Source: a virus | Taxonomy: Duplodnaviria > Heunggongvirae > Uroviricota > Caudoviricetes | Strand: one strand, 5' to 3' | Virus record (IMG/VR): IMGVR_UViG_3300032167_000073 | DNA length: 64,000 nt | Shown here: piece after piece, positions 8,705 to 32,892 of the stretch | Layout of the letters: each line of letters begins with the position of its first letter | Numbering within the stretch: the stretch's first letter is position 1 | Program-made: the position numbers and the translations under genes | Notes under the pieces: generated by a model | The model's database searches: none | What the model was told of the DNA's origin: nothing | What the model saw: only the letters and a program-made list of their open reading frames with translations

Positions 8705-10603
8705 ATGTGTAAGGTCACGATGAACGAGGAAAAGAACGGTATTGAGATCCGCTTTGATGAGAAGCCGGACAAGGCTGTGCTGGAAATGCTCAAGGATGGC
8801 GGTTTCCGTTGGAGCCAGAAGCAGAAGATGTGGTACGCCAAGAAGAACGATGAGCGTATGTCGCTGGTCGCTAATCTGGATTCTGTTTCCGTTGAAACCA
8901 AAGCAGAAAAAGTAAATACGCAAGATAATGCGTATGATCTCTTTGAGATGACCAGAACCGATACCATCGGTAACAACGTGGATAAGAGCCTCTCCGCCAA
9001 GGAGATTGCCGCGATCATCCGCAAGCATATGCGCAGCCGTTTCCCGTTCTGCAAGTTCTCCGTGACCACGGATGGAAGCGCCTATAACGCTTCGATCAAT
9101 CTGGATATCCTCAGAACGCCGTTTGAAAAGGGCAGCGAAGAGTTTGAGGCCATCCGCGAGTATTTCAATAAGTACACCGCAAGCTTCAATTATACGGAAG
9201 ACCGTGATCCGTACAGCGATTATCCCGGCACCACCAATTTTTACGGTGGGCATTGCAGCGGCTGCTATCGCTACGTGCAGGGTGAATTCACCGAGGAGAT
9301 GAAGCAGATGTCCGAGCGCTTTATGGCATCCAAGCTGGCGCATAAAATCAGCGAAGACGAGCGCTCGAAGCGCGAATACGAAATGCTTATGGCGCAGGAG
9401 GAAGAGAAGCGCCGCGAGAGCGAGCGCCGCGAAGAGATCCGCCGCGCCAATCATGATCTTGTTGAATCCGGCGCTGTGGTCAAGAATCTGGATACGCCGT
9501 ACTTCCTTGAGAATGTCATCGAGCTTAAACATGGCAAGAATGACGATATTGCCGAATATGAGAGCGAGCATGCCGATAATCCCGGCTCCCGTGTCGCTTG
9601 TCAGGTGACGCGCGAAGTGCATCTGTGCGCCGACCTGTATAAGCTCTTTGCCTCTCAGCTTCTGGATGATTGGAGCTTCATTTCTGGCACGGGTGGTAGC
9701 CGCACAGAGGATATGCGTATCAGCTCTTTCCTTGATTACGAGATGATGACCAAGGACGTGCAGGATACCGTGCATTGGTTCTCCCGCAATTGCGTCGCCA
9801 TCTTCTGTGAGGGCAAGATGATGTGCGTTGTCGATGCGCAGGGTTATACGTATTGCCGCTATGTCTTCTTGGTCGATGGCGCGACTTATATGGCGGATAG
9901 CCACGAAACCAAGCAGGCCATCACCAAGGAAGAGTATGAAGCGTATGCGCAGCAGGCCGACCGCCTTGAGGATGCAAGCGCCGAAATCATCCTTGTTAAT
10001 CATTGGGAAGAGGCGGGCAACAAGTGGAATGTTGAGCGTTTTGAGGAGTATAAGCAAGCGATGATCGCTTGGATGGAGCATAACAAGTTCCCCATGAGTG
10101 TCCATGTCGTCCGCGCAATCCCCTCTTCAGTTGGCGATGAATTCAAGACGGCCATGTATCGCATCTTGCAGTTTACGCAGGGTATCCGTTATCAGATGGC
10201 AAAGGCGGATATTCATCCCGGCCAGAAAATCACCATCGTCAAGATGGATGAATGGCTTGGCGGCGTGCGCCCGATTCGTTGCACGTTTGAGGAGTATGTG
10301 GAATGCCGCTATGCGCAGCATGAAGACAATGTGCGCGTTACCTTCAAGCAGGAGCGTAAGCACAATCTGTCCGCTATGCATATCCATGGCGATGTGCTCA
10401 TCTATGACGGCTATATCCCGGATATCCCGGAAGAACTGATGTGGGATGTGAAGGTGAGGCCGAATGGCGTAGTCACCAAGCTTTCCCGCTTTATGTCCTT
10501 TGACCATAAGCAGTATGACGTGATCATGGAGCATTATAAGAAGCTTGGCTGTAATCTCTTGGTCAATACGATCAATAACGAATTTGCCGACAAGGAGGAG
10601 TAA
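8705..10603 (+). CDS. large hypothetical protein (~633 aa)
   Basis: long ORF after GGAGG RBS; N-terminal GIEIRFDEKP...GFRWSQKQKMWY module, central charged/coiled region; no family assigned. Confidence 0.6.
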   Translation: MCKVTMNEEKNGIEIRFDEKPDKAVLEMLKDGGFRWSQKQKMWYAKKNDERMSLVANLDSVSVETKAEKVNTQDNAYDLFEMTRTDTIGNNVDKSLSAKEIAAIIRKHMRSRFPFCKFSVTTDGSAYNASINLDILRTPFEKGSEEFEAIREYFNKYTASFNYTEDRDPYSDYPGTTNFYGGHCSGCYRYVQGEFTEEMKQMSERFMASKLAHKISEDERSKREYEMLMAQEEEKRRESERREEIRRANHDLVESGAVVKNLDTPYFLENVIELKHGKNDDIAEYESEHADNPGSRVACQVTREVHLCADLYKLFASQLLDDWSFISGTGGSRTEDMRISSFLDYEMMTKDVQDTVHWFSRNCVAIFCEGKMMCVVDAQGYTYCRYVFLVDGATYMADSHETKQAITKEEYEAYAQQADRLEDASAEIILVNHWEEAGNKWNVERFEEYKQAMIAWMEHNKFPMSVHVVRAIPSSVGDEFKTAMYRILQFTQGIRYQMAKADIHPGQKITIVKMDEWLGGVRPIRCTFEEYVECRYAQHEDNVRVTFKQERKHNLSAMHIHGDVLIYDGYIPDIPEELMWDVKVRPNGVVTKLSRFMSFDHKQYDVIMEHYKKLGCNLLVNTINNEFADKEE

Positions 10604-19341: not shown

Positions 19342-19443
19342 TGATGAATGCCTTGCATCTTCTCTGGATTCTTCCGGTGACGATTGTTCTGTCTGTTCTC
19401 TTTACGGCGCTGTTTGTGTCCGGTAAAGGAAACTGATAATCGT

Positions 19444-19470
19444 AAACCCTACTGAGTAGGGTTTCAAAAT
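19444..19470 (+). terminator. rho-independent terminator
   Basis: aaaccctactgagtagggttt perfect 9-bp stem followed by caaaat. Confidence 0.6.
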
Positions 19471-19597
19471 CGCAGAAATGCGTTCGGCCTACTTGAGAGG
19501 CCGCAACGTGAGGGACGCGACTGAATCACAAAGCATTCGACGGCGATCCACTCACGAAAAACTGTGTTACAACGGTTGCTGGGTAACTGGATTTGAG

Positions 19598-19880
19598 GTT
19601 TGACTAGTCTATTAGGTAACACAGTTACCAAGCAAGAGGAAGTCTTTGATTGCCACTCTCAGCGTTTGACTAGTCTATTAGGTAACACAGTTACCAAGCT
19701 TACTATGGCAGTTCTGGCCGTGCTTTGCGTTTGACTAGTCTATAAGGTAACACAGTTACCAAGCTGCTGATCAGTGATAATACCCTTGTTTCTTGTTTGA
19801 CTAGTCTACAAGGTTACACAGTTACCAAGCACTTTTGTGGATAGACTTTTGTGTCGAGGCGTTTGACTGGTCTATGAAAG
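19598..19880 (+). CRISPR. CRISPR array: 4 full 36-bp repeats + degenerate terminal repeat, 4 unique spacers (30, 29, 30, 30 bp)
   Basis: repeat GTTTGACTAGTCTATTAGGTAACACAGTTACCAAGC at 19598, 19664, 19729, 19795 (R4 variant); truncated GTTTGACTGGTCTATGAAAG at 19861; repeat carries hairpin GGTAAC-ACA-GTTACC near its 3' end. Confidence 0.85.
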
Positions 19881-19896
19881 ATAAATAAAGGAATAT

Positions 19897-21339
19897 ATGA
19901 AAAAGAACGAATTTGAAAATCAGAGTATTATTGTAAAGAAATTGACACTTTATCCGAAGGATGAAGTGGACAGGACATTTAAATATATCGATGATGCAAT
20001 GTGGTCGCAGAATCGCGCATATAATTACGCTGCATCTGTCGTCTATTCGGCTATTCAAAGTCGAAAAACAAAAGAAGAAATTAAGAGAATTTATGACCGT
20101 ATACAAAGAACTCCAAAGGAAGATGATCCTGAGTATAGTATCTTCCCGTATGATGAATTTAAATTTCCGGTTGGATTGGTTGTTCCAAGTACGGTTTGCC
20201 AAAGGCTTAAAAAGGATATGGCCGCAGCCATCAAAGCAGGTCTTCTAAAAGGCGAGCGTTCTTTGCAGAATCGCAAGCGCAATGCGCCGCTCTTGGTGGA
20301 AAGTCGATTCATGCAGTTTTCCCATAACTTTTCTTCTCATGAGGAGTTTAAGCAAAATCTTTTCACCAGCAAGTGCAAGATCGAAATGAAGTTTGTCAAT
20401 GGCATCGTATTTAATTGCGATATCGGTACGCCGGGAGCGAATTCCAGCGATCTGCGCATGACGTTTGAGCGTATTTTCGATGGAACTTATAAGGTGGTGC
20501 AGTCCTCTATCGGGTTCAGGGAAACCAAGCAGGCGCGTGATCCATCCGGCAAGGATAAGGATGCAAAGAAGAAGCGAGAAATCGTGCTCAATCTCACCTT
20601 GAAGATTCCAAAGCGCTCCTATGAGCTGGATGAGGAAACTGTTGTCGGCGTGGATCTTGGCGAGGCTGTACCCGCTGCTGTTGCGCTGAATAATAGCATA
20701 TACATGGGTAAAAAGAATCTGATTGGTGAAGACGATGACTTCCTCGATAAGCGCAAAGAGATTAAGGATAGGCACAAGCGTCTGCAAAAGCGCATGACGC
20801 TTGCCAAGGGCGGTCATGGCCGAAAGCGCAAGCTGGAGGGTTTGGATAGGCTGAAGGAGTACGAAAAACACTTTGCTGAAACGTATAATCACCATGTCAG
20901 CCGCGAGGTTATCCGCTTTGCGCTTGCCAATCGCGCCAAGTATATCCATATGGAGGATTTGTCAAGCTTCTCTGATGAGGATAAGAAGCGCCATATCCTG
21001 AAGGGCTGGTCGATCTACCAGTTGCAGCAGTTCATTTCCTATAAAGCGGAACAGGTCGGCATCACTGTCAGGTATGTCAATCCGGCCTATACTTCTCAAA
21101 ATTGCTCCTTCTGTGGTAGCGATAAACCCGGCCAGCGTATTTCTCAGGCGGAATTTGTTTGCAAGAATCCTCTGTGTCCGTCTCATGATTTTAAGCATGG
21201 CGTGAATGCAGACTTTAATGCCGCAAGAAATATTGCTCTGTCCGATAAGTTTATTGATCAAGAAGAGAAAAAGGCGAAGAAGCGCAAGAAGGGCAAGTCT
21301 CCTGAAAAGGTGGAAGAGGCAAATGATATGCCTTTCTAA
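19897..21339 (+). CDS. compact TnpB/Cas12-like RNA-guided nuclease (480 aa) adjacent to CRISPR array
   Basis: RuvC-I VVGVDLGEAVPAAVAL, RuvC-II IHMEDLSSF, zinc finger CSFCGS...CKNPLCPSHD, RuvC-III HGVNADFNAARNIA; lysine-rich C-terminus. Confidence 0.75.
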   Translation: MKKNEFENQSIIVKKLTLYPKDEVDRTFKYIDDAMWSQNRAYNYAASVVYSAIQSRKTKEEIKRIYDRIQRTPKEDDPEYSIFPYDEFKFPVGLVVPSTVCQRLKKDMAAAIKAGLLKGERSLQNRKRNAPLLVESRFMQFSHNFSSHEEFKQNLFTSKCKIEMKFVNGIVFNCDIGTPGANSSDLRMTFERIFDGTYKVVQSSIGFRETKQARDPSGKDKDAKKKREIVLNLTLKIPKRSYELDEETVVGVDLGEAVPAAVALNNSIYMGKKNLIGEDDDFLDKRKEIKDRHKRLQKRMTLAKGGHGRKRKLEGLDRLKEYEKHFAETYNHHVSREVIRFALANRAKYIHMEDLSSFSDEDKKRHILKGWSIYQLQQFISYKAEQVGITVRYVNPAYTSQNCSFCGSDKPGQRISQAEFVCKNPLCPSHDFKHGVNADFNAARNIALSDKFIDQEEKKAKKRKKGKSPEKVEEANDMPF

Positions 21340-21344
21340 ATATT

Positions 21345-21396
21345 TTAAAAATAAAGCAGAAAAAGTATTGACAAGAATGGCAAAATGCTATATACT
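21345..21396 (+). promoter_or_regulatory. conserved phage promoter module, class 1
   Basis: AAATAAAGCAGAAAAAGTATTGACA (21368-21373), N17, TATACT (21391-21396). Confidence 0.7.
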
Positions 21397-21442
21397 GTTC
21401 TTACAACAACAAAGCACCCACAACACAAGAAAGGATAAAGAG

Positions 21443-22063
21443 ATGAACGAAATCAATGTGATCAACAACGTCCCCGGCATCAGCGTAACCGTCAATAAGA
21501 ACGAGGACGGCAGCTTCGCCATCATGCTTGTCGAAAAGCAGAAGGGCAAGCAGCTTGGCTCCTTTGCGCGTGGCAGCGTCGTGAAGATTGGCAACCGCGA
21601 GTATATCATTCTCGATCATTCTCTTGAGACGACTGCCGTGATCGCCAAGGACTTCGTGAAGCAGATGGAATTCGGTTCTGACGGTAATTGGATTACCAGC
21701 AAGGTTCGCGCATATCTAGACACCACCTTCTATGATGAGCTTTGCAAGGCCGTTGGCAAGGAAAACATCATCACGCATACCGTGAAGCTGGAGGCGGACG
21801 ATGGTACGGGTAAGAGTGTAAAGTCTCAGGACAAGGTATCTCTGCTGACTACGGAGCAGTATCGCCGCTATCGTGAGTATCTTCCGGCCTATGGCAAGTG
21901 GTGGTGGCTGGCTACCCGTGTGAGCTATGATGTGAAGGATTATGCCCGCAGCGTCTGCTGCGTGGGCTCCTTCGGTGTTCTGGGCTGGGACGGCTGCGAC
22001 GGTGTGAGTGGCGGCGTGCGCCCGTTTTGCATCCTGAATTCTTCCGTCTTGGTATCTGAGTAA
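21443..22063 (+). CDS. DGR target protein (206 aa) with C-terminal variable region
   Basis: C-terminus ...WWWLATRVSYDV...CCVGSFGVLGWDGCDGVSGGVRPFCIL encoded by VR; start after AAAGGATAAAGAG RBS (ORF-track start 21206 reads through promoter). Confidence 0.65.
   Translation: MNEINVINNVPGISVTVNKNEDGSFAIMLVEKQKGKQLGSFARGSVVKIGNREYIILDHSLETTAVIAKDFVKQMEFGSDGNWITSKVRAYLDTTFYDELCKAVGKENIITHTVKLEADDGTGKSVKSQDKVSLLTTEQYRRYREYLPAYGKWWWLATRVSYDVKDYARSVCCVGSFGVLGWDGCDGVSGGVRPFCILNSSVLVSE
21946..22031 (+). repeat. DGR variable repeat (VR)
   Basis: aligns with TR at 22462-22549; ~15 mismatches at TR adenines, 1 elsewhere; identical GC-rich 3' end GGCGGCGTGCGCCCGTT (IMH-like). Confidence 0.75.
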
Positions 22064-22067
22064 AATC

Positions 22068-22433
22068 ATGGATGACGAACTCCGGTTTCATCTTGGAGAT
22101 AAGGCAGAAAAACTATACTTCTCTGTATTTGATGAAACCAACAACAGGAATCATTTCCCTGTAAAATTCAGGCGCTTGGCCGACCGTATGCAGGAATACG
22201 CACTTGATATTCATAGCGATCTTTTAGATGCAAATGCGTATCGAACCGATATTTCGTATCAGAAGGTCAAGCGTAACGAATTGCTCACCAGCGCAATAAC
22301 CAAGTGCAATAAGTTGATGAGCCTTGTAAAATACTGCGTCTATGCGCAACGGATTAGCTTTGCCCGCAGCGAAGAGTGGACAAAGCTGGTCAATGAAATC
22401 AAGTATATGTCCCTGTCTCTTCGCAGCAAATGA
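22068..22433 (+). CDS. avd: DGR accessory variability determinant (Avd-like, 121 aa)
   Basis: size, position between target and TR, helical bundle-like sequence with Avd/23S-IVS family pattern. Confidence 0.6.
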   Translation: MDDELRFHLGDKAEKLYFSVFDETNNRNHFPVKFRRLADRMQEYALDIHSDLLDANAYRTDISYQKVKRNELLTSAITKCNKLMSLVKYCVYAQRISFARSEEWTKLVNEIKYMSLSLRSK

Positions 22434-22461
22434 GAATTATTCCTTGGGCTATGCGCTGATG

Positions 22462-22549
22462 CGCCCGCAACGTCTGCAACGTGAACTCCAACGGTGTTCT
22501 GAACTGGAACTACTGCGACAATGAGAATGGCGGCGTGCGCCCGTTCTGG
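22462..22549 (+). repeat. DGR template repeat (TR)
   Basis: non-coding copy of VR located between avd and RT. Confidence 0.75.
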
Positions 22550-22653
22550 TGGATAAGCGAGGTCTGTAAATTGCTTGTGCAATTACGAGGAGTGCTCCAC
22601 ATCAAAAGAGCGCATAACCCTTCTCACGGCAACGTGGGATAAATACAAATGTT

Positions 22654-23748
22654 TTGATGACTGACTTTGAAAAGCTGACGGATTTTGAAAACCTGTATCG
22701 CGCCTATCGCTCGTCCATGAAGGGTAAGGGTAAGCGGAATAGCGCGGTAAAGTTCAGTGTCATGGCGCTGGAATACCTCTATGTCATGAAGCGCCAATTG
22801 ATTGCTCATACATATAAGGTCTCGCCTTATCAGGAGTTTATCATCTCTGAGCCGAAACGCAGAGTTGTCAAGTCCGGCGCTTTCAAAGATAAGGTTTTGC
22901 AGCATTGTCTTTGCGATCAAGTCCTGCTGCCTAAGATGAAGAATGTCTTCATCCTAGACAATTATGCGGGGCAGATTGGCAAAGGCACGCTGTTCGGCCT
23001 AGATCGGTTGTCGCAGAACATGCTTTCCTTTTATGGTGAGCATGGAACCAAAGGATATATTCTCAAATGTGATATCACGAAGTTCTTTTATAGCATCAAC
23101 CATGATGTGATGAAGCGCTGCGTCCGGCAGTATTTCGACGATCCGGGCATCCAGTGGATATGTGATTTGTTCATAGACAGCGTGGAGGGCGACGGCTTGC
23201 CGCTTGGCAATCAATCCAGTCAGGTCTTTGCGCTTATGTATCTGGATGGGATGGATCATTTCATCACCGAAGGGCTTGGCTGTAAATACTATGGAAGGTA
23301 TATGGATGATTTCTACCTGATATCGGATGATAGGGAGTATCTGAAAGAGTGCCTGAAAAGGATAAAGGTATATCTGGACGGTTTAAAGCTTTCTCTCAAT
23401 AATAAGACAGAAATCGTTCCAATGTCCAAAGGTATTCGCTTTCTTGGTTTCCATACGTATGTGACAACCGATGGCAAGGTGATCAGAAAACTCACAGGGG
23501 AAAATAAGCGTCAGATCAAAAAGCGCCTGAAAAAGTATGCCAAACTTGTCATCGATGGCCGGATGACCATGGAGAAGTTTGAAGAAACCTATCAGAGCTG
23601 GAAAAACCATGCTTCGCATGGAAACTGCTATCGTCTTCTGTGCAGCATGGATGAGTATGTGTCATCACTGTTTTCAGAAGTAAAAAAAGAATTTAAAAAT
23701 AAAGCGGAAAAAGTATTGACAGATCATTCTAAAGGTGGTAAAATATAG
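22654..23748 (+). CDS. DGR reverse transcriptase (364 aa)
   Basis: RT motifs incl. LGNQSSQVFALMYLDGMDH (DGR-specific SQ motif) and YGRYMDDFYLISDD (YxDD catalytic box). Confidence 0.85.
   Translation: MMTDFEKLTDFENLYRAYRSSMKGKGKRNSAVKFSVMALEYLYVMKRQLIAHTYKVSPYQEFIISEPKRRVVKSGAFKDKVLQHCLCDQVLLPKMKNVFILDNYAGQIGKGTLFGLDRLSQNMLSFYGEHGTKGYILKCDITKFFYSINHDVMKRCVRQYFDDPGIQWICDLFIDSVEGDGLPLGNQSSQVFALMYLDGMDHFITEGLGCKYYGRYMDDFYLISDDREYLKECLKRIKVYLDGLKLSLNNKTEIVPMSKGIRFLGFHTYVTTDGKVIRKLTGENKRQIKKRLKKYAKLVIDGRMTMEKFEETYQSWKNHASHGNCYRLLCSMDEYVSSLFSEVKKEFKNKAEKVLTDHSKGGKI
23696..23744 (+). promoter_or_regulatory. conserved phage promoter module, class 1 (embedded in 3' end of RT gene)
   Basis: AAAGCGGAAAAAGTATTGACA (23716-23721), N17, TAAAAT. 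Confidence 0.6.
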
Positions 23749-23794
23749 GAAAGTTGAGCGCAGCGTAGTTTGGGCTGGCGCTTCATAAAAACCT

Positions 23795-23835
23795 ATAAAA
23801 CCAAAGCAGATAAAGTATTGAGTAGTGAGTATAGA
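23795..23835 (+). promoter_or_regulatory. conserved promoter module, class 2 variant
   Basis: AAAACCAAAGCAGATAAAGTATTGAG. Confidence 0.45.
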
Positions 23836-24137
23836 GCCACAGACGTTGAGCCGCGATTGTACAAGCCGGAGCATTGTAGCCCGTACAGCACATGCTCAGG
23901 TGCGGCAGGATGCCGGGGTTGGCGTATGCAAGGTGTAGCGCGGCGTTAAGCAGGAAGTGGTGGTGCAAATCCCCCTACCTCTTAGGCACCTTAAAATCAA
24001 CGGACGTGAAAAAGCGATGAACAAACATAGAAATTAGCAATTAAGCAACTGCGGGTGCGAGAGTGCGCATATCGCATCGGCCATCGCTCGGACGGGTGAA
24101 AGTCCCGCCCCTCAATATCATCTGTACGGAGGAAATC

Positions 24138-24347
24138 ATGACAAGCAATCAGATCATCCGCATTATGGAACATCTTGGGTATAGGCATGAGACCCATCCT
24201 AGATATAAGGTTTTTCATGGAGAATTTGATATCAAGGCATTTACTTCGTGGTCAGATTGCGAAGCATGGATGAAAAATCACCGCGATTATAAGAATGCCA
24301 GATATCGCGCTATGAGAGCGGCTAAAGAAATGAGAAAGAAAAAGTAA
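24138..24347 (+). CDS. hypothetical small basic protein
   Basis: ORF ending just before tRNA-Gln. Confidence 0.4.
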   Translation: MTSNQIIRIMEHLGYRHETHPRYKVFHGEFDIKAFTSWSDCEAWMKNHRDYKNARYRAMRAAKEMRKKK

Positions 24348-24354
24348 TTTACAC

Positions 24355-24429
24355 TGAGGGTTCGCCAAGCGGTAAGGCACGGGACTTTGACTCCCGTATC
24401 GTTAGGTTCGATTCCTACACCCTCAGCCA
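24355..24429 (+). tRNA. tRNA-Gln(TTG)
   Basis: cloverleaf: acceptor tgagggt/accctca, anticodon loop cTTTGac, T-loop ttcgatt, encoded CCA. Confidence 0.75.
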
Positions 24430-24721
24430 TTTGAAGCAAAGGACAATCGGGGAATGGCGTGATGTGGAGCACTCATGCATGCAGGTGTTCAGTCGATAAA
24501 GCATCTATCCGAATCTTGATATACGTTTGCTTCGATTTTCTGGCGATGGAGTATGCTGGTTCGATTCCAGCCTGACGGACTCAGGAGCTGCGGCAAGGAT
24601 GCAGCAACATCGCCGTTTTTTATACTGCGTTGGACAAAAGGTTAAGTCGCCGCTTATTTCTAGGCGGAGCTGCGGGTTCGATCCCCGTGCGCGGTTCAAT
24701 GTCAAATGAAACGAGGAACGT

Positions 24722-25102
24722 ATGAGGCATTTAGAAGCAGAGGATGTTGTCTGGTTTGTCAATCACAAGTGTGGCGAAATCGCCTACATGATCGACGAGG
24801 GAGATATCATCAGGATCTTCACCAAGGACAGCAAATGGATGATCTATAAGGATATCAATAGATGTTCGCAGGAGTACACGCTGTATCATAGCAGCTCGTC
24901 GAGCAATCACAAGCACTATCATGTGCAGATGACATCATTGCGTATGGATTATCTGATCTGGCGTGCATGCATCCATGATTACCCGGAAGCGCAGAAGAAG
25001 TTCGCTTCTTGGCCTCAGTTCCTTGCTTCGTTTGAGCTTTATCTTCTAGGCCGCGAGATCGCGGAGCGTGCATCGCTTTGGGATTTCGTTGTGGCGGATT
25101 GA
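24722..25102 (+). CDS. hypothetical protein (126 aa)
   Basis: ORF between tRNA genes. Confidence 0.45.
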   Translation: MRHLEAEDVVWFVNHKCGEIAYMIDEGDIIRIFTKDSKWMIYKDINRCSQEYTLYHSSSSSNHKHYHVQMTSLRMDYLIWRACIHDYPEAQKKFASWPQFLASFELYLLGREIAERASLWDFVVAD

Positions 25103-25106
25103 GCTT

Positions 25107-25183
25107 GCGCCATTAGCTCAGTCGGTACGAGCACGTGACTTTTAATCACGGAGTCCGGGGTTCGATCCCCCGATGGCGCACCA
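25107..25183 (+). tRNA. tRNA-Lys(TTT)
   Basis: acceptor gcgccat/atggcgc, anticodon loop cTTTTaa, T-arm cgggg-ttcgatc-ccccg, CCA. Confidence 0.8.
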
Positions 25184-25317
25184 AAGGCAGGTTACTGGTA
25201 AGATAGCCCTGTTCTCAACAAAAAGCCATCTTACAGGACGACAACCTTGCAGCGGCATCCACGATGGTGAGTAGTGGGTATTTGAAAGCTGAAACGATAT
25301 GCCGCAAAATAGTCTCT

Positions 25318-25392
25318 GCATCGATTAGCATAATGGCAGTGCCGATCCCTCCAAAGGATACGATTCTGGTTCGACTCCAGAGTGGATGCAGA
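25318..25392 (+). tRNA. tRNA-like element, possible tRNA-Trp(CCA), non-canonical
   Basis: T-loop ttcgact, anticodon-like loop ctCCAaa, imperfect acceptor/D arms; no encoded CCA. Confidence 0.3.
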
Positions 25393-25399
25393 TTTTCAT

Positions 25400-25476
25400 G
25401 GGGCTGTAGCTCAGATGGCTAGAGCGCCTGCCTTGCAAGCAGGAGGTCGAGGGTTCGATTCCCTTCAGCTCCACCA
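25400..25476 (+). tRNA. tRNA-Ala(TGC)
   Basis: acceptor ggggctg/cagctcc with G3:U70 Ala identity pair, anticodon loop cTTGCaa, CCA. Confidence 0.85.
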
Positions 25477-25587
25477 TCTATGCATTTATGCGTATAATAT
25501 ACGATCCATAATGCGCAAATATAGGCATGTATGGATAATATATGCGCTATTTATACACAATAAAACGAGCATTTTATGGGGTGATCA

Positions 25588-25828
25588 AGTGTCGAAAATC
25601 AAATCTTTTCTTCAAAGCATTCCGCCGGATATCCTTGGCAGTGCGATTGCCTTAATCATTCTGTTCTTTCTGACGTTTGGCATCAACATGGTCAACGAAG
25701 GAAAGTGGAACGAGGGTGTTTGCCCGGATTGCTATACAGGCTATATGCTGCGTGGCGTGAGGAAGGGTTACAGCCATTACGTTTGCAGCGAGTGTGGCGA
25801 TGAGATTATCCGCTACATGGAGTGGTGA
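25588..25828 (+). CDS. small membrane/zinc-ribbon protein
   Basis: TM segment then CPDCY...CSECGD; GTG start chosen because ORF-track ATG (25382) lies inside tRNA-Ala. Confidence 0.4.
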
Positions 25829-25830
25829 TC

Positions 25831-26106
25831 ATGGCGCACAGATGGAACAGTGAAAACTTGAAGCGCCAGTACGAATGGGTAAAAGAGACGGCCATCAAGC
25901 AGGGGTTTAATGCGGAGGATCTTGATCCGCCTTATCTGGATAAGCTCAGTCACAAAACCAAGTCAAAGCGTATTTTCAGCTTCATCAAGCTTGCTTACTT
26001 CCTTGGCTGGCTCCGTGGCATTGCCTATGTGGATGGTGGGCTTACGCCTGTGACGCTGGATAAATGGGAGAAATGTGTATGGGAGAAAAGAAGTTCAGCA
26101 AATTGA
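25831..26106 (+). CDS. hypothetical protein
   Basis: ORF on + strand. Confidence 0.4.
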   Translation: MAHRWNSENLKRQYEWVKETAIKQGFNAEDLDPPYLDKLSHKTKSKRIFSFIKLAYFLGWLRGIAYVDGGLTPVTLDKWEKCVWEKRSSAN

Positions 26107-26354
26107 TCGTGAAGATTCACACCAAAGTATTTGATGCGGATTCGATCATGAAGACGGCACAGCCAGTCATTGATTTTGCCAATCAGCATGATATCGCTCT
26201 AAGGCTTGAGCGGGATGCAGCAGGTCAAGTCCTTGCCACCAGTATGGCGGAAGGATATACGAGCGCTTATTGCAAGGGTGCCGTTCAGGAGATCAAGGAA
26301 ATGCTCAAGCGTGCGTTTTCTTGCAAGGTCGAGGTACTTTTGTACGCATATTGA
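26079..26354 (+). CDS. hypothetical protein
   Basis: ORF on + strand. Confidence 0.4.
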   Translation: MGEKKFSKLIVKIHTKVFDADSIMKTAQPVIDFANQHDIALRLERDAAGQVLATSMAEGYTSAYCKGAVQEIKEMLKRAFSCKVEVLLYAY

Positions 26355-26375
26355 TGAAAAAAGGAGAAAAAGAAA

Positions 26376-26663
26376 ATGGGTATGATGAATAAGAAGAAGA
26401 CAACCGAGCAAGTCATTTCTGCGGCCACTACCAAGATTTCAGATGACGTCGCTCATCTGAACCTGATGCGCGAGAATGCCGTCAGGACGTTTAGACAGAC
26501 TGCGCAGAGCTTGCAGGCCAATAACGAGGAGCTTCAGGCTTCCGTTGAGCGCTTTACCATTCTGGAAAACTTCGCAAAGGGTAAGCGAGAAGAGTGTGTC
26601 CGCGCAATCGAGGACAATAACAAGGTTCGTGAAAAGATTCTGGAGATTATCGGCGAGGAGTAA
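26376..26663 (+). CDS. hypothetical coiled-coil protein (95 aa)
   Basis: AAAGGAG RBS; heptad-like charged sequence. Confidence 0.5.
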   Translation: MGMMNKKKTTEQVISAATTKISDDVAHLNLMRENAVRTFRQTAQSLQANNEELQASVERFTILENFAKGKREECVRAIEDNNKVREKILEIIGEE

Positions 26664-26700
26664 AATCCTGCCTATACAAATAGGAAGGAACAGGTGAAGT

Positions 26701-27006
26701 ATGGAAAACACCGTTAAGGGAACTCGACTGAAAACGGAGCTGTGCGCCCATCTTCTGTCTGTGCGCAGCGTTGCAAACGATGAGCAAAAGCATGCTCTTG
26801 ATGTTGCAGTTCGCGTAATCGACGAGATTGATAAGTACGCTTCTAAGCACGATCTTGCGTTGAGCTGCGGCGGAGAGTGGATGTATCAAAGCGACATGGG
26901 TCAGGTTGATGCGCTTGCGCTGGTATCCAAGATTCTTGATCGCCTGTCTGAGTACGCCGAAGATGATGAAGACGATGAAGAGTGGAGTGAAGACGATGAT
27001 GAGTAA
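26701..27006 (+). CDS. small protein with poly-acidic C-terminus (DNA-mimic candidate)
   Basis: C-terminus EYAEDDEDDEEWSEDDDE. Confidence 0.5.
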   Translation: MENTVKGTRLKTELCAHLLSVRSVANDEQKHALDVAVRVIDEIDKYASKHDLALSCGGEWMYQSDMGQVDALALVSKILDRLSEYAEDDEDDEEWSEDDDE

Positions 27007-29263
27007 TCCGGCCATTGTGATTAACGAAATTGTTCTGCGCCGAAGAAATAAGCTCACCATTCCTGAGCGCCACGCTGGGTTCTACAATCCAGACCGTGCC
27101 AATCTAGTGCTTGCCATGGCGAAGAATGTGGAGTCGTTAGGTTTTGCATTCTCCATGGATACGGCGACTCGTCTGCTGTATTACAACGACAAAGAGCTGG
27201 AAGACTTCTATAAGCAGCTCATTCCAATGCTCAAGAAGTTGGTCGGCGCGGATGTGGAGTATCATCCGATGTATCCGAACTTCCCACAGCAGGTTATCGA
27301 TGCGCCTCTGATCGAGCTGTTCTTCAATGCGCTCATGCATTACGTGACGGATGGCGAGTATCTGCCGGAATACGTTAAGGAAGAGCGTCTTCCTATGCTT
27401 GATACGTGCAAGGCGAAAATTCTGACGCTTGCCGATGAAAACGGTGCAGACCTGATGGATATCTTCTCCAATCTTCTTAGAAGCAAGACTTCTCTGTCTG
27501 AGCAGGATAAAGCAGATGTGGAATGGATTGTTTTAAACAATGTCAGCCATGTCAAGCATATGCCGGAAGAGATTCCGCTCAAGGAGAATGTGGCGTTCAT
27601 TTCAAAGCTCATTATCGAAAAGTCGCCGCTAAAGTCGTCCAAGTGCATCGAGCGGTATTTCTCCACGGCGACGGATGTTCTTCGACTCATCGTTTCCATG
27701 TCTGATGGCGATATCAGCTTGGCTGATAAAACGAAGTTCAGGTCGCTCAAGAGATCGGAGCGCCGGATGATTCTGGATCTCCTTGCGCATTGCGGGGATA
27801 TTTACGAAGACCTCTTCCGCTATCGTGATGAGTGGATTCGCGTTGCAGAAATCCTGCATGTCGGAGAATATGTCGGTAAACCGAAATATCGCGGCGTATG
27901 CGATTATTTCAGGTCGCTTAGAAACGATAAAAAGCCGCTTCTCTATCCGGGCTATGTGGAAACCATGATCGCCAAGGGCGATATGGTCGGGGCAGCTAAT
28001 CTCCTGATGGAGCGTCCCGGCGAGTTTGCACGCAGGCTCGATAAGCTCATCCGCGATACGGATTGGCAAAAGGATATTGTGGACATGTTTGAAAAGGTTG
28101 CAGATCGTGTGGCCGTCCCGGTTCTTTTGCAGGTTCGTCAGCATTTCCTTGCTCGTCATAAGAACGATGCGCCCATTCGTGTCTTCTTCCCGAAGGGCAG
28201 CGTAGCGCATGCCATCGTTGAGCCAAATGAACTCAAACCCATCGACTACGAAATTTGCAGGCGCGTTGTCATGATCTGCAATAATGCAATCATCGCGCAG
28301 TTTAAAAAGGATAAGCCGGAGATGGGCAGGGTTTATGTCGATCCTGAGCTGGAAAACTTCATGGTTCCGTTCAGCCAGCGCAGCGCGTCCAGCGGCAGCA
28401 AGATCATGGTTCGTGGTAGCTCAATCCCGATCAGCAAGGATGCAAAGTTTGTCCGTGCGTTCATCTGGTGGACAAATACGGATAAGCAGATCAAGGATGA
28501 AGATTTGAATTATTGGCGCGGTGATGAAAACCGCGTAGATATCGATCTTTCTGCCTGTATTCTCGATGAGGATTTCAAGTATGTATCCCATGTATCCTAT
28601 ACCAATCTGCGTTCCGGCTGTATGGCCGTTCATTCCGGCGATATTGTCGATGGCGGAAGCGTAAAGGGTAAGGGCGTAGCAGAATTTCTCGACATCAATA
28701 TTGATGAGGCTGCAAAGCATGGCCGTTATGTCTGCTTCCAAGTGTATAGCTTCACGCAGCAGCCGTTCTCGTCTATGCCAAATAGCCGATTCGGTTGGAT
28801 GGAGAGGGAGAGCCAGAATTCCGGCGAAATCTTTGAGCCGCGCACGGTAGAGATGTGTATGAATGTGTCCTCTGACAGCAAGGTTTCCATTCCAGTCATC
28901 TTTGACTGCAAGGAGAAGCGATTTGTCTGGTTGGATATGTGCCTGTCTATCGACAGCTTTGCTTCCAGCAGAGGCAATAACATTGAAAACAACTTCTCTC
29001 AGGTTCAGGCCATCTGTTATGCCATGATGCATCTCAACAAGCCCAATCTGTATGATCTGATTGCGCTCAATGCAAAAGCAAGAGGAACAATCACGGACAA
29101 CCGCAACGAAGCGGATATCATTTTCAGCAATGACACGACCAAGCCCATCGAATGTGTGATGGTGGAAGGTTCTGAGCATCAGCTTGAAATGGTGAACCGT
29201 GAAAAGGACACACCAATCATTACGGCCTTTGACATGGATTACATCATGGGTAATCTGCTGTAA
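26996..29263 (+). CDS. large protein (755 aa) with C-terminal TerD-like domain
   Basis: VDIDLSACILDEDFKYVSHVSYTNLRSGCMAVHSGDIVDGGSVKGKGVAEFLDINIDE...YVCFQVYSF matches TerD/TelA calcium-binding beta-sandwich consensus (DLDLSA..fD......v.f.nl.....hsGDn.tG.g.gdDE.I..dL). Confidence 0.55.
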   Translation: MMSNPAIVINEIVLRRRNKLTIPERHAGFYNPDRANLVLAMAKNVESLGFAFSMDTATRLLYYNDKELEDFYKQLIPMLKKLVGADVEYHPMYPNFPQQVIDAPLIELFFNALMHYVTDGEYLPEYVKEERLPMLDTCKAKILTLADENGADLMDIFSNLLRSKTSLSEQDKADVEWIVLNNVSHVKHMPEEIPLKENVAFISKLIIEKSPLKSSKCIERYFSTATDVLRLIVSMSDGDISLADKTKFRSLKRSERRMILDLLAHCGDIYEDLFRYRDEWIRVAEILHVGEYVGKPKYRGVCDYFRSLRNDKKPLLYPGYVETMIAKGDMVGAANLLMERPGEFARRLDKLIRDTDWQKDIVDMFEKVADRVAVPVLLQVRQHFLARHKNDAPIRVFFPKGSVAHAIVEPNELKPIDYEICRRVVMICNNAIIAQFKKDKPEMGRVYVDPELENFMVPFSQRSASSGSKIMVRGSSIPISKDAKFVRAFIWWTNTDKQIKDEDLNYWRGDENRVDIDLSACILDEDFKYVSHVSYTNLRSGCMAVHSGDIVDGGSVKGKGVAEFLDINIDEAAKHGRYVCFQVYSFTQQPFSSMPNSRFGWMERESQNSGEIFEPRTVEMCMNVSSDSKVSIPVIFDCKEKRFVWLDMCLSIDSFASSRGNNIENNFSQVQAICYAMMHLNKPNLYDLIALNAKARGTITDNRNEADIIFSNDTTKPIECVMVEGSEHQLEMVNREKDTPIITAFDMDYIMGNLL

Positions 29264-29432
29264 GGTTGTGTGTCAGCCTCCGGGCGTTCGCCCTTCATAT
29301 AGACGGGGATTTCCCCAAATTTCGGCTGTGTCGTCCATCCTTCTTTCTAATTCTATACAGTGAGTGCTTTGCAGCTAAAAGCTGCGAAGTGTTCATAACA
29401 ACAAGACCGGGTGACAGATTTCCGAAATTTCT

Positions 29433-29482
29433 AAAAATAAATCAGAAAAAGTATTGACAGATACAATCTGATGATGTATAAT
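29433..29482 (+). promoter_or_regulatory. conserved phage promoter module, class 1, driving the tRNA cluster
   Basis: AAATAAATCAGAAAAAGTATTGACA (29454-29459), N17, TATAAT (29477-29482). Confidence 0.7.
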
Positions 29483-29544
29483 GTAAGAGCAGTGAGGCCA
29501 AAGGAATAAAGCCGGAGGATAATCTGCAATGTTGGCTGGATGCT

Positions 29545-29660
29545 TCATCCTTCTTCGCTTTGGGAGCTGCGTGTCGCAGGTTCGAGTCCTGCACCGCTGG
29601 CGTGTGCTGGCGGTTAGCTCAGTCGGTAGAGCAACAGATAGAAACGAGGCAGCGATTTCC
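29545..29660 (+). pseudogene. tRNA fragments (isolated T-arm/acceptor half and 5' half with D-arm)
   Basis: gcaggttcgagtcctgcaccgctggcg and gctggcggttagctcagtcggtagagcaac lack partner halves. Confidence 0.3.
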
Positions 29661-29780
29661 AACATTTACATATAAGATTCGCATGATTCGGCTGAAAGGT
29701 TCATCCTTCTAACTAGGTATATTTTGAAGATTTCTAAGCAGAGCCTTTGATTTCCGATGATTGCGAATCTACTTCCCTAA

Positions 29781-29810
29781 AAAACCAAAGCAGAAAAAGT
29801 ATAAACACAT
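29781..29810 (+). promoter_or_regulatory. conserved promoter module, class 2, immediately upstream of tRNA-Leu
   Basis: AAAAACCAAAGCAGAAAAAGTATAAACAC. Confidence 0.5.
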
Positions 29811-29813
29811 CTT

Positions 29814-29896
29814 GCGGGTGTGGCGGAATGGCAGACGCGGCAGATTTAGGATCTGTTGCCAAAAGCGTATGGGTTCAAATCCCTTCACCCGCACCA
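29814..29896 (+). tRNA. tRNA-Leu(TAG)
   Basis: acceptor gcgggtg/cacccgc, anticodon loop tTTAGga, long variable arm, CCA. Confidence 0.75.
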
Positions 29897-29899
29897 AAC

Positions 29900-29987
29900 G
29901 GCGAGTTGTCCGAGTGGTTTATGGTGATGGTTTGCTAAACCATTGGCGGGAAACCGCCCACAGGTTCAAATCCTGTACTCGCCGCCA
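29900..29987 (+). tRNA. tRNA-Ser(GCT)
   Basis: acceptor ggcgagt/actcgcc, anticodon loop tGCTaaa, long variable arm, CCA. Confidence 0.8.
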
Positions 29988-29996
29988 TTTTCCCAA

Positions 29997-30073
29997 TGAT
30001 CTTTAGCTCAGTTGGTCAGAGCAAGTGACTCATAATCACTAAGTCTAGGGTTCAAGCCCCTAAAGATCAACCA
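29997..30073 (+). tRNA. tRNA-Met(CAT)
   Basis: acceptor tgatctt/aagatca, anticodon loop ctCATaa, T-loop ttcaagc, CCA. Confidence 0.75.
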
Positions 30074-30077
30074 TCTC

Positions 30078-30162
30078 GCCGACGTGACGGAATTGGCAAA
30101 CGGAGCGGACTTAAAATCCGCTGCTATCAAGCTTGTGGGTTCAAGTCCCATCGTCGGCACCA
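30078..30162 (+). tRNA. tRNA-Leu(TAA)
   Basis: acceptor gccgacg/cgtcggc, anticodon loop cTTAAaa, long variable arm, CCA. Confidence 0.8.
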
Positions 30163-30169
30163 TTTATAT

Positions 30170-30246
30170 TGCGGAGTAGAGAAGTGGTCATCTCGTCAGC
30201 CTCATGAGCTGAAGATCGCTGGTTCGAATCCAGCCTCTCGCAACCA
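30170..30246 (+). tRNA. tRNA with CAT anticodon (second Met, fMet or Ile2-lysidine type)
   Basis: anticodon arm tcagc-ctCATga-gctga, T-loop ttcgaat, CCA; acceptor with one mismatch. Confidence 0.6.
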
Positions 30247-30251
30247 TCTAT

Positions 30252-30328
30252 CTGGGTGTAGCTCAGTTTGGTAGAGCGCGTGCTTTGGGAGCATGAAGTC
30301 GGGGGTTCGAATCCCTTCACTCAGACCA
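30252..30328 (+). tRNA. tRNA-Pro(TGG)
   Basis: acceptor ctgggtg/cactcag, anticodon loop tTTGGga, CCA. Confidence 0.75.
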
Positions 30329-30331
30329 TTT

Positions 30332-30405
30332 GCAGCAGTAGTTTACTGGTAAAATAGGAGACTTCCACTCTTCGGAAACGGGTTCGATTCCCGCCTGCTG
30401 CACCA
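30332..30405 (+). tRNA. tRNA-Gly(TCC)
   Basis: acceptor gcagcag/ctgctgc, anticodon loop cTTCCac, CCA. Confidence 0.75.
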
Positions 30406-30987
30406 ACGCGCCCTGTCTGCCGCTCAGTGGCGCATGAATAAGTAAGATCAAGCGGCGGTGTCCAGACATCACAATAATCCGAAAGAGATGCCGGGCTCAG
30501 GGAACCGGAGTGGCGGGATGGAGCCGATAAACCCATTCCAGTGCTGGGACGTATGACCTCAGATAGTTGGCGGACAACGAAAAAATCTGGAATTTGCTCG
30601 ATCTGGCTGCGAGTAAGATCAGCGTCTGATTGGCGATTTATGCCGACGGACAGCAGATTGAGGCTTGCAGAGAATTGCGGATGCTGCTGCATGTGTGTCT
30701 GCGAGGGCGAAAGCTTCAATATATGATGCGATACAGGACTAACCAGATCATGACACCGTATCGAATCCACCACAGGATCTTAATGGATGAATCGGATACG
30801 ACGCATGCAGGGCGTTGTGGTGAAAAGTTCCGAGGGTAAACATGGATTGCCTCTTGTCGTGTGGCAGAGGAGGGCAAAGAACGAGGCGTGGGCGAAGTCG
30901 ATCTCTGATCATCATGTCGAAGCTTCGCGTGTATGCGGCAGGCCAAGTTGCAATCCTTGTTTACTTGTAAATCAGTTTTGTTTATTT

Positions 30988-31063
30988 GCTGGCGTAGCTC
31001 AATTGGCAGAGCAGCGGATTTGTAATCCGCAGGTTGTGGGTTCGACTCCCTTCGCCAGCTCCA
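30988..31063 (+). tRNA. tRNA-Thr(TGT)
   Basis: acceptor gctggcg/cgccagc, anticodon loop tTTGTaa, CCA. Confidence 0.8.
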
Positions 31064-31356
31064 GAAATAAATAACATCGGAGGTACACATTATGGCATTC
31101 ATCGAATCAGTCAAGGCGCGAATCAATCTGCTTGAGCAGCGCGATCCCGTTGTCAATGCGCGAATCATTGGCAAGCTGAAGCGAAAGCTGAGGAAGCTTG
31201 AAGCTCTGGAAGCGGTGACGTGCGAATGAACGATTTTGCAATCGCATGCGCAATGGTTACCGGAGTGGTTGCCCTTGCGTGCATGGTCAATCGATTCTTT
31301 CCATCTGATTATCACAAGCAGATCGAAGAAAAGTACAAAGGAGAGTAAGTAGTCAT

Positions 31357-31542
31357 ATGCCTGTGTTCTGGTTTCTGGCATTTCTTGGGCTGATTGTCCT
31401 ATGGTTCCTTCTCGCATTTGCGTATAAGGCAATCGGCAGATTCTTTAAGCGGATATTCAAGGATTCCTACGATGCTATGACGTCGGAAGATCCAAAGGAT
31501 ATATCAATCACAAACGAAAATGACGGAGGTAAAGAAGAATGA
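31357..31542 (+). CDS. small membrane protein (61 aa)
   Basis: hydrophobic N-terminus MPVFWFLAFLGLIVLWFLLAF. Confidence 0.45.
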   Translation: MPVFWFLAFLGLIVLWFLLAFAYKAIGRFFKRIFKDSYDAMTSEDPKDISITNENDGGKEE

Positions 31543-32471
31543 ATAGTGGAAAAATTGGCGGCATCCTGCTTGCTGTGATTCTTGTGATCATTGCTGGCGT
31601 GCTTATCGGCTGTGCAGTACGCATTCCTGCTGGATACGTCGGTATTGTCTATGACATGAACGGCGGCGTTGGCGATGAAGTTCTCACGCAGGGCTGGAAG
31701 CTGGTCGCTCCGACGAAGAAGGTAACGACGTACACCATCGGCCTTGAGCAGTCTGGTCTCACGGCGGAGTCTACACAGGATTCCTCTGGCGATGAGTCGT
31801 TTAACATTCCGACCAGCGATGGTAAGACGGTGAATGTCAGCCTTGAGTTCTCGTACTATTTTGATAGCGAGCGGATTGCCGACACATTTAAGCTCTTCAA
31901 GGGACAGTCTGGCGAGTCGATCAAGACCACGTTTATTAAGCCGAAGATCAAGGCATGGACACAGGAAGTTTCTGCCAATCATCCGGTTGCCGATATCTTC
32001 GGCGATCAGCGAACGGTGATTAACAATGAGCTGGATATTCACCTGAAGGAGAAGTTTGACCAGTACGGCATCATTATCGATACGGTGAACTTCACAGATA
32101 TCCGCGTGGATGAAGAGACTGCAAAGGCTATTCAGCAGAAGGTCAACGCACAGCAGGAACAGGAACTTGCGCGTATTCAGTCTGAGACTGCAAGGATTCA
32201 GGCAGAGAAGGATAAGCAGGTTGCTCTAATTGCGGCGGAAAAGGAAAAAGATGTGGCCTCTGTGAATGCAGAGCGTCAGATCATCGCTGCGCAGGCCGAG
32301 GCAGATGCGCTGATGATTCAGGCAGGAGCCGAAGCGGATGCGAACAAGCTGATTGCCGCATCTCTCACGCCGGAGCTGATCGAGAAGATTAAGTACGAGC
32401 GATGGGATGGCGCAATGCCGAAGGTGTCTGGCGGCATGCCGATTATCGATATCGGCGACGTGGGAGAGTAA
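31539..32471 (+). CDS. SPFH/band-7 (prohibitin/HflK-like) membrane protein
   Basis: N-terminal TM helix, SPFH core GYVGIVYDMNGG...QGWKLVAPTKKVTTY, long Ala/Gln/Glu coiled coil. Confidence 0.7.
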   Translation: MNSGKIGGILLAVILVIIAGVLIGCAVRIPAGYVGIVYDMNGGVGDEVLTQGWKLVAPTKKVTTYTIGLEQSGLTAESTQDSSGDESFNIPTSDGKTVNVSLEFSYYFDSERIADTFKLFKGQSGESIKTTFIKPKIKAWTQEVSANHPVADIFGDQRTVINNELDIHLKEKFDQYGIIIDTVNFTDIRVDEETAKAIQQKVNAQQEQELARIQSETARIQAEKDKQVALIAAEKEKDVASVNAERQIIAAQAEADALMIQAGAEADANKLIAASLTPELIEKIKYERWDGAMPKVSGGMPIIDIGDVGE

Positions 32472-32490
32472 TCTTCCACATAGACACTTG

Positions 32491-32512
32491 CCCGCTTCCC
32501 CTGCGGGCATTT
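32491..32512 (+). terminator. rho-independent terminator
   Basis: gcccgcttcccctgcgggc hairpin + atttc. Confidence 0.4.
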
Positions 32513-32516
32513 CACG

Positions 32517-32606
32517 GGGAGTTACCCAAGCGGCTGAAGGGGGCGGTCTTGAAAACCGCTAGGCGGCAACCCCGCGCAAGGGTTCAAATCCCTTACTCCC
32601 CGCCAT
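32517..32606 (+). tRNA. tRNA-Ser(TGA)
   Basis: acceptor ggggagt/actcccc, anticodon loop cTTGAaa, long variable arm, CCA. Confidence 0.8.
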
Positions 32607-32613
32607 TTTCTTG

Positions 32614-32698
32614 CCGGACTGGTCGGAACTGGCAGACGCGGCGGATTCAAAATCCGTTGTCTTATGACGTGTGGGTTCAAGTCCCACGTCCGGCACCA
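32614..32698 (+). tRNA. tRNA-Leu(CAA)
   Basis: acceptor gccggac/gtccggc, anticodon loop ttCAAaa, long variable arm, CCA. Confidence 0.75.
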
Positions 32699-32818
32699 TA
32701 TATAGAGAAGCTACGAAAACATTGGATGGATAAGCGCATGAAAGACTTGGCGGCTCAGACAGACCAGCCTCGCATAGTGTCTGTCGATTCCGATGATTGC
32801 GCAGCTTCTCTTTTGTTT

Positions 32819-32892
32819 GCAGACATGGTGTAGTGGAAACATATCTGATTCCCATTCAGAGGATGCGGGTTCGATTCCCGTTGTTTGCACCA
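32819..32892 (+). tRNA. tRNA-Gly(CCC)
   Basis: acceptor gcagaca/tgtttgc (with G-U pair), anticodon loop ttCCCat, T-arm gcggg-ttcgatt-cccgt, CCA. Confidence 0.6.

Follow-up and report, generated by a model that had tools for sequence, protein, structure and literature searches.

A promoter-to-promoter diversity-generating retroelement, very probably complete and active, in a large Caudoviricetes phage

The DNA analyzed here is a stretch of 64,000 nt of the Caudoviricetes record IMGVR_UViG_3300032167_000073, called the window below; all coordinates are window positions on the + strand. We are highly confident that the cassette at 21443-23748 constitutes a diversity-generating retroelement (DGR) that is complete and active at present, extending from promoter to promoter in a large phage. 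The cassette consists, in this order, of a target gene, avd, a template repeat (TR) and the gene for a reverse transcriptase (RT), and the target gene carries a variable repeat (VR) near its 3' end. All DGR hallmarks that can be examined in silico were found: adenine-biased differences between TR and VR, an RT of the appropriate type, the accessory protein Avd, RNA elements, a suitable target fold, and turnover of VR. An earlier note on this DNA, prepared from the letters alone, had described a complete target-VR/avd/TR/RT element; the adenine-specific TR/VR divergence, the DGR-type RT, Avd and the activity that it named each passed an independent test. The features of the cassette are as follows.

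21443-22063, + strand: target gene, 206 aa, DUF6273, C-type-lectin fold, VR near the C-terminus
21944-22026, + strand: VR, in frame near the 3' end of the 206-aa target open reading frame (ORF)
22009-22026, + strand: GC-rich element at the 3' end of VR, similar to an initiation of mutagenic homing (IMH) element, same as the TR copy; homology ends at 22026
22068-22433, + strand: avd, 121 aa, predicted four-helix bundle
22463-22545, + strand: TR, non-coding, 19 adenines, between avd and the RT gene, with an IMH*-like GC-rich 3' end at 22528-22545
22546-22656, + strand: spacer (Sp) RNA, between TR and the RT gene
22657-23748, + strand: DGR RT, 363 aa from ATG (364 aa from TTG at 22654); the last ~16 codons overlap the next promoter motif

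A repeat search identified an ungapped direct repeat of 86 nt (21944-22029 versus 22463-22548, offset 519, 80% identity). The 88-bp VR/TR repeat of the earlier note, placed at about 21946-22031 and 22462-22549, is therefore real, with coordinates that were off by 1-2 nt. Over the 84 columns starting at 21944 and ending at 22027 there are 17 mismatches, and 15 of them are at TR adenines, close to the about 15 of 16 counted previously. Adenines of TR are changed in 15 of 19 cases, compared with 2 of 65 for the other bases (Fisher p=3.2e-11). The changed adenines are at codon positions 1 or 2 of AAC, AAT, GAC, GAG and TAC codons. In VR, the varying positions extend from 21950 to 22008 and affect codons 170, 173, 175, 177, 181, 183, 184 and 186-189. 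The two mismatches at other bases are T22511 in TR versus G21992 in VR, and C22546 in TR versus T22027 in VR. The second lies one base beyond the common GC-rich block. Because the same C/T difference recurs in all 13 closest relatives, it represents the end of homology and not a mutation.

The GC-rich block contains a 17-mer, GGCGGCGTGCGCCCGTT, that is identical in VR (22010-22026) and TR (22529-22545), with divergence starting immediately afterwards. The identical GC-rich ends had been recognized earlier as IMH-like, and the common 17-mer fits such an element. An exact copy of its 16-nt core (TGGCGGCGTGCGCCCG) is also present at 10258-10273, inside an unrelated 637-aa ORF (8690-10603). This copy is in the same frame as in VR and TR (GGVRP) and has no TR/VR similarity on either side; by chance, about 0.01 such matches are expected per window. 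As a minor possibility, the orphan core could be a cryptic homing or nicking site. A second, remote VR was not found in the 64-kb window, where the best non-self match to the non-adenine positions of TR was 34/67, equal to background. A search with the adenine-masked VR/TR pattern gave no matches in the IMG/VR and JGI metagenome contigs searched, which are collections without this lineage; the pattern does match the window and the contigs L071-L079 described below.

The activity of the element is indicated by contigs from other samples. Contigs L073 (JGI 3300018475) and L074 (SRR7031456) match the window without a single difference, the former over 8741 nt and the latter over 4050 nt. Contigs L071 (JGI 3300022661, 4812 nt) and L072 (SRR7032251, 4050 nt, a stretch with avd, TR and the greater part of RT) show 16 substitutions relative to the window, all of them in 21950-22008 and 15 at positions of TR adenines. 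The sixteenth difference is at 21992, where L071 has the TR base T. Linked polymorphisms in the flanks, which would be a sign of strain recombination, were absent from the comparison of L071-L074 with the window. Judged from these alignments, the element appears to have rewritten VR faster than a single substitution arose elsewhere in 4-5 kb. The earlier note had read the adenine-specific divergence as evidence for an active element and had named a lack of VR heterogeneity in population data as the test against it. The opposite was found, since contigs that are otherwise identical differ in VR alone.

Contigs from further samples that are 96-97.5% identical to the window (L075-L079) showed the same pattern. 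TR contains no substitution in any of the five, and VR contains 12-20. Sp is likewise free of substitutions in the four contigs that cover it (L075, L076, L078 and L079), at a segment divergence of 2.2-2.8%. Taken together, six VR alleles show 71 differences from TR. Adenines account for 66 of these (A>G 38, A>T 23, A>C 5), and all 19 TR adenines vary. The VR allele of L075 has three G>T differences from TR besides its changes at adenine sites, and the window VR has one T>G. At the protein level, variation among target relatives in near-identical clusters is confined to the 11 codons with an adenine in TR. These codons have a mean of 7.1 distinct residues, versus 1.13 elsewhere (23 proteins in two clusters of at least 90% identity), and 26 near-identical target proteins contain 24 distinct VR peptides.

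The RT matches Pfam RVT_1 and, at 8e-111, phrog_1423. Its best solved relative is the DGR RT of the Bordetella phage (bRT, PDB 8ub7, E 4.4e-37), compared with 5e-10 for group II intron RTs. The NQSSQ motif, which the earlier note had called diagnostic for DGRs, and the YMDD box that it also named are both present; LGNQSSQ and YMDD align to IGSLTSQ and YMDD of bRT, in agreement with the [ILV]GxxxSQ motif. In bRT, contacts with the template and the incoming dNTP are made by residues K29, F66, R74, D138, I181, Q187 and D215/D216; two of these, R74 and I181, promote mutagenesis at adenines (bioRxiv 10.1101/2023.10.23.563531; PMC7826257). Read from the 8ub7 alignment, the equivalents of all these residues are conserved, with Leu (in LGNQSSQ) at the position of I181 and YMDD supplying D215/D216. 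By its sequence, the enzyme belongs to the DGR clade and not to the CRISPR-associated clade. Assignment as a group II intron, retron or defence-associated RT was rejected, as the NCBIfam group II, retron and Drt models scored far below their cut-offs. Protein look-ups returned no exact record for the 364-aa (TTG-start) RT or for P0134; gene callers use the ATG (363 aa).

A match at 7.9e-12 links the 121-aa protein to phrog_3206 ("Avd protein of DGR"). An AlphaFold (AF2) model built from 42 homologues (pLDDT 94.7) has four helices. Foldseek searches with this model found the pentameric IVS/"S23" family proteins 2rld and 2gsc as the best matches (TM ~0.8) and Bordetella Avd 4dwl with probability 1.0 and TM 0.75. 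The PHROG match, the modelled fold, the size and the position together point to Avd, as had been proposed for this gene.

Structure in the RNA around TR was apparent from comparative analysis alone, the fold of the single TR-Sp sequence being not significant (z=-1.08). The alignment comprised the window and its 12 closest IMG/VR relatives (RT 64-76% identical, n=13); it began 25 nt ahead of TR and ended where the RT gene starts. Structure was called by RNAalifold and by pair counts, with partners slid by 1-3 columns and 500 shuffles as controls. Overall, 94.7% of cells were paired, versus 38-50% in the slid controls; 13 pairs showed changes on both sides, and none of the 500 shuffles reached the observed covariation. 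One element is a 12-bp duplex that brackets TR, formed by 22609-22620 and the following arm.

22446-22457, + strand: 5' duplex arm (GGGCUAUGCGCU), pairs with 22609-22620

Compensatory changes occur in 5 of the 12 pairs of this duplex, and 95.5% of its cells are paired in the 13 sequences. Just 3' of TR, Sp forms a stem-loop (22563-22590) in which 5 of 5 core pairs covary and whose loops, in several relatives, look by eye like UNCG tetraloops. Sp further contains a helix (22547-22555/22591-22599), a hairpin (22622-22639) and, at 22600-22610, the sequence CAUCAAAAGAG, which is invariant. In the Bordetella ribonucleoprotein, sequences flanking TR form a "cPRT Stop duplex", and an "Avd-binding stem-loop" lies just downstream of TR; these elements were predicted in 207 of 278 Avd-type DGRs. 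To judge from the aligned sequences, the predicted RNA architecture of the window matches this arrangement. The helix 22547-22555/22591-22599 might, by analogy, be the template:primer duplex. Its U22547-A22599 pair is invariant and would place initiation at C22546, exactly at the end of TR/VR homology. An Rfam search over 22400-24720 returned only tRNA, even at E<=1, and no family covers the DGR RNA.

The limits of the cassette are set by two copies of a promoter motif.

21353-21396, + strand: cassette promoter, motif AAAGCAGAAAAAGTATTGACA, -35 TTGACA (21368-21373), 17-nt spacer, -10 TATACT (to 21396)
23701-23744, + strand: following motif copy, overlapping the RT gene at its end; bounds the cassette on the 3' side

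The first copy reached a promoter scan score of 11/12. The motif AAAGCAGAAAAAGTATTGACA followed by 17 nt and TATAnT has 18 matches on the + strand of the window (at most 4 mismatches), about a dozen of them with a TTGAC -35 element. The copies, all of them on the + strand, start at 1197, 4780, 8611, 12462, 21353, 23701, 23803, 29439, 37934, 41771, 48324, 56702 and other positions. From this recurrence we infer a phage-specific promoter. Because motif copies are located at 21353-21396 and 23701-23744, the DGR can be described as a promoter-to-promoter cassette of ~2.4 kb. Around the -10 element, many copies have CTGGAGTTATACT in common. When translated in frame, the motif extends RT at its C-terminus by a "KNKAEKVL" peptide, which it also adds to over-extended target ORF calls of 246/285 aa. 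In the segment 23803-24060, a third, weaker copy is followed by ~230 nt of GC-rich sequence without a convincing ORF; this stretch has no Rfam match (23830-24060) and does not fold more stably than its shuffled versions (z=0.95).

By analogy with Bordetella phage BPP-1, the element would operate in four steps. The cassette would be transcribed from the promoter at 21368-21396. The RNA of the avd 3' flank, TR and spacer would then fold, with the 12-bp duplex bracketing TR and the stem-loop just 3' of TR. A complex of RT and Avd would bind the folded RNA, reverse-transcribe TR and misincorporate opposite its 19 adenines. The mutagenized cDNA would finally replace VR at the 3' end of the 206-aa target gene, and the GC-rich TR/VR block would form the 3' boundary. 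The order of these biochemical steps, cis-priming from the spacer and a role of the target as a ligand- or receptor-binding protein are all presumed from BPP-1.

The fold of the target was confirmed by structural matches. The best was the DUF6273 N-terminal domain of the Thomasclavelia IgA peptidase 9qa6 (score 14.4), followed by the C-terminal domain of Legionella Lcl (9.4), the DGR target TvpA (7.2), many C-type lectins (about 6) and Mtd (5.3). A PDB search with the single target sequence gave only noise. Eleven target codons are recoded, namely eight AAY plus TAC, GAC and GAG. The theoretical repertoire is therefore 15^8 x 4^3, or ~1.6e11 peptides displayed on a C-type-lectin-fold domain, with stop codons impossible.

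The layout of target, avd, TR and RT with adenine-biased TR/VR mismatches was found in 59 of 70 related IMG/VR loci; the flanks of the cassette are not conserved in more distant relatives. In many of the IMG/VR loci L015-L069 (RT ~55% identical), two small targets are arranged in tandem, each with its own VR matching the single TR and with adenine-specific mismatches (for example, 2786-2853 and 3317-3386 in L017). Megablast of 19400-24000 against the INPHARED annotated phage genomes gave no match, so this lineage is missing from them.

Among characterized elements, the BPP-1 DGR (mtd-avd-TR-brt) shares with the window the order of target, avd, TR and RT, the adenine-specific differences between TR and VR, and a VR at the C-terminus of a C-type-lectin-fold domain. 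It also shares the GC-rich common 3' element, a four-helix-bundle Avd, an RNA duplex bracketing TR with a stem-loop just 3' of TR, and an RT that is the best PDB match (8ub7, 4.4e-37), with equivalents of R74, I181 and Q187 conserved. The two elements differ in the length of TR (83 nt in the window versus 134 nt in BPP-1). The 206-aa target is much smaller than that of BPP-1 and has no beta-prism or beta-sandwich for tail-fibre attachment, and the cassette is not located beside tail genes. Moreover, homology between TR and VR stops at the start of the predicted TR:Sp helix, whereas in BPP-1 it continues through an IMH*, which matches IMH except at a few positions.

The closest annotated relatives are the gut phages nd4 and nd12 (nd12 RT 52.5% identical; tgt2 of nd12/nd4 ~30% identical to the target). 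Their tgt2 consists of a DUF6273 C-type-lectin domain alone, with VR at the C-terminus, but it is located far from RT and is one of two targets, the other being a tentaclin with an N-terminal VR (Baykov et al. 2023, PMC10743442). In contrast, the window has a single target directly upstream of avd, without a second VR in the 64 kb examined, and its phage, with contigs of 129-163 kb, exceeds nd4 and nd12 considerably in size and has many tRNAs. Next after nd12 and nd4 come the Faecalibacterium phages Brigit, Toutatis and Lelie. The RTs of this group (Lelie, CP11, Roos, Pioen; Toutatis/Brigit) are 39-40% identical, and their DGR targets contain DUF6273, with VR mapping to its C-terminus (PMC11792537; bioRxiv 2024.10.15.618418). 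By way of difference, these are temperate phages with genomes of ~50-60 kb; among their targets, several exceed the window target in size or have Ig-like domains, and target identity is below 30%. C-type-lectin folds are also found in Treponema denticola TvpA and in the C-terminal domain of Legionella Lcl (DUF1566), which are bacterial surface proteins rather than phage proteins and have no detectable sequence similarity to the target.

Several observations weigh against the interpretation of the cassette as a complete and active DGR. The match of the 121-aa protein to NCBIfam DivGenRetAVD is weak (2.7e-4, below cut-off), a PDB search with its single sequence gave noise, and a 35-sequence profile did not reach the Avd structures in the PDB. 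VR is not followed by a hairpin or cruciform (DNA fold z=0.33), unlike in BPP-1. Five of the 71 differences of the VR alleles from TR are not at adenines. The heterogeneity of VR is between samples and assemblies rather than within one population. Finally, the target has no recognizable domain for attachment to the virion or tail, and it is encoded in a stretch without a recognized structural gene.

The last point concerns the role of the target. The earlier note had expected a C-type-lectin-like fold in what was probably a receptor-binding tip. The fold is as expected. Receptor binding is a putative role, since the target is small, has no recognizable tail-attachment domain and is located in a 64-kb stretch in which no structural family was found. 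The window is phage DNA, with all genes on one strand and 16 tRNAs. Its PHROG matches include a sliding clamp, an anti-repressor, methyltransferases, NAD-salvage enzymes, an RNA ligase, a polynucleotide kinase and a Thg1-like enzyme, and none of the 20 large ORFs scanned matched a structural family. A DGR cassette in a 64-kb stretch without a recognized structural gene is a mild oddity.

The DGR could thus be active and its target not be a virion receptor-binding protein. The target could instead be a Hoc- or "tentaclin"-type adhesin that decorates the capsid or tail. It could also be a diversified binder that is non-structural, stands free and is expressed with nearby auxiliary genes. We consider this alternative rather unlikely, although several findings point in its direction. 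The 20 large ORFs scanned match only families of non-structural or unknown function, and the window has its 16 tRNAs. The promoter motif of the cassette is the same as that of the auxiliary transcription units. The target has merely 206 aa without a recognizable tail-fibre attachment domain, matches phrog_10993 ("Hoc-like head decoration") weakly (6.6e-5), and has the N-terminal domain of a bacterial IgA peptidase as its best structural match. On the other hand, the small DUF6273-only DGR targets of nd4/nd12 and the Faecalibacterium phages have been read as Mtd-like receptor binders (PMC10743442; bioRxiv 2024.10.15.618418), and one BFVD structural neighbour of the target is annotated as a receptor-binding protein. 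A more specific form of the idea, that the 206-aa lectin-fold protein is a free-standing soluble or cell-associated binder of variable host or environmental ligands expressed with auxiliary non-structural genes, seems distinctly doubtful to us; it fits because of the lack of a recognized structural gene in the 64 kb, the promoter type of this arm, and the lack of a recognizable tail-attachment domain.

It is very improbable that the cassette is a relic in which the adenine-biased divergence is historical and homing has ceased. A single genome cannot distinguish past from present activity, and the lack of a cruciform downstream of VR would suit a relic. However, contigs of different samples have 0 substitutions in the 4-4.8 kb flank versus 16 in the 59-nt VR stretch, nearly every one of the near-identical target proteins has a VR peptide of its own (24 of 26), and TR, Sp, avd and RT are intact and conserved.

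The DGR has a CRISPR-like cassette as its upstream neighbour.

19598-19896: mini CRISPR-like array
19897-21339, + strand: 480-aa effector gene, directly upstream of the target gene

The array contains four 36-nt repeats (GTTTGACTAGTCTATTAGGTAACACAGTTACCAAGC) at 19598-19830, with spacers of 29-30 nt and a degenerate fifth copy, read by eye, at ~19861. The 480-aa protein passes the NCBIfam cut-off for the TnpB family (1.4e-45) and resembles Cas12f2 (1.5e-30, below cut-off). The segment 19462-21327 (1.87 kb) is present in L071-L074 and absent from the 96-97.5% identical contigs L075-L079. In the latter, a terminator-like hairpin of the FolD operon is followed by ~40 nt and then by the DGR promoter. 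From this comparison, array and effector are a strain-variable, independently mobile insertion into an intergenic site. As the cassette is missing from such closely related strains, its adjacency to the DGR carries no functional weight. The earlier note had correctly placed the DGR directly downstream of what it called a CRISPR-Cas locus and had remarked on the unusual pairing; the adjacency is real, but it reflects a strain-level insertion and gives no evidence of a functional link.

We give almost no credence to a functional unit of DGR and mini-CRISPR/Cas12-like cassette, such as an RT serving spacer acquisition or a co-regulated host-range/defence module. In its favour, the effector stop at 21339 is only 14 nt before the DGR promoter motif, and in locus L004 a Cas12-like gene (32% identity) follows RT at a distance of 3.4 kb. 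The presence/absence polymorphism already refutes the idea to a large extent: L075, L076, L078 and L079 retain an intact DGR and diversified VRs without 19462-21327 (L077 ends just past TR). In addition, the effector is found within 4 kb in 0 of 69 other related DGR loci, the RT is of the DGR clade and not the CRISPR-associated clade, and the inserted segment is set off on its two sides by the terminator-like hairpin and by separate promoters. The gene in L004 (8435-9043) is Cas12-like/TnpB-like and the only one of its kind near the DGR among the other related loci.

Downstream of the DGR, a cluster of 16 tRNA genes (24355-32892) starts 600 nt beyond RT. Within it, ARAGORN calls a tRNA with a 2-nt anticodon at 24624-24697, which Rfam does not report. 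The region 44943-61162 is dense in auxiliary genes, encoding a PAPS reductase-like protein, PRPP synthetase, NAMPT, NAD synthetase, RNA ligase, polynucleotide kinase and a Thg1-like tRNA-His guanylyltransferase. These genes amount to NAD-salvage and tRNA-repair modules.

The impression of a link between the DGR and the CRISPR-like cassette is corrected by our analysis, and the latter should be judged on its own. DGRs with small DUF6273 targets have already been published for phages nd4/nd12 and the Faecalibacterium phages, and the present element adds one more; it is a clean natural example of a DGR and not a new principle. The locus is a compact natural diversification cassette, with a length of 2.4 kb, an 83-nt TR, a small target of ~200 aa and ~1.6e11 variants. 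The RNA elements that structural work recently defined in Bordetella are supported here by covariation in a distant phage lineage of the gut or rumen type, which favours a general mechanism of reverse transcription.

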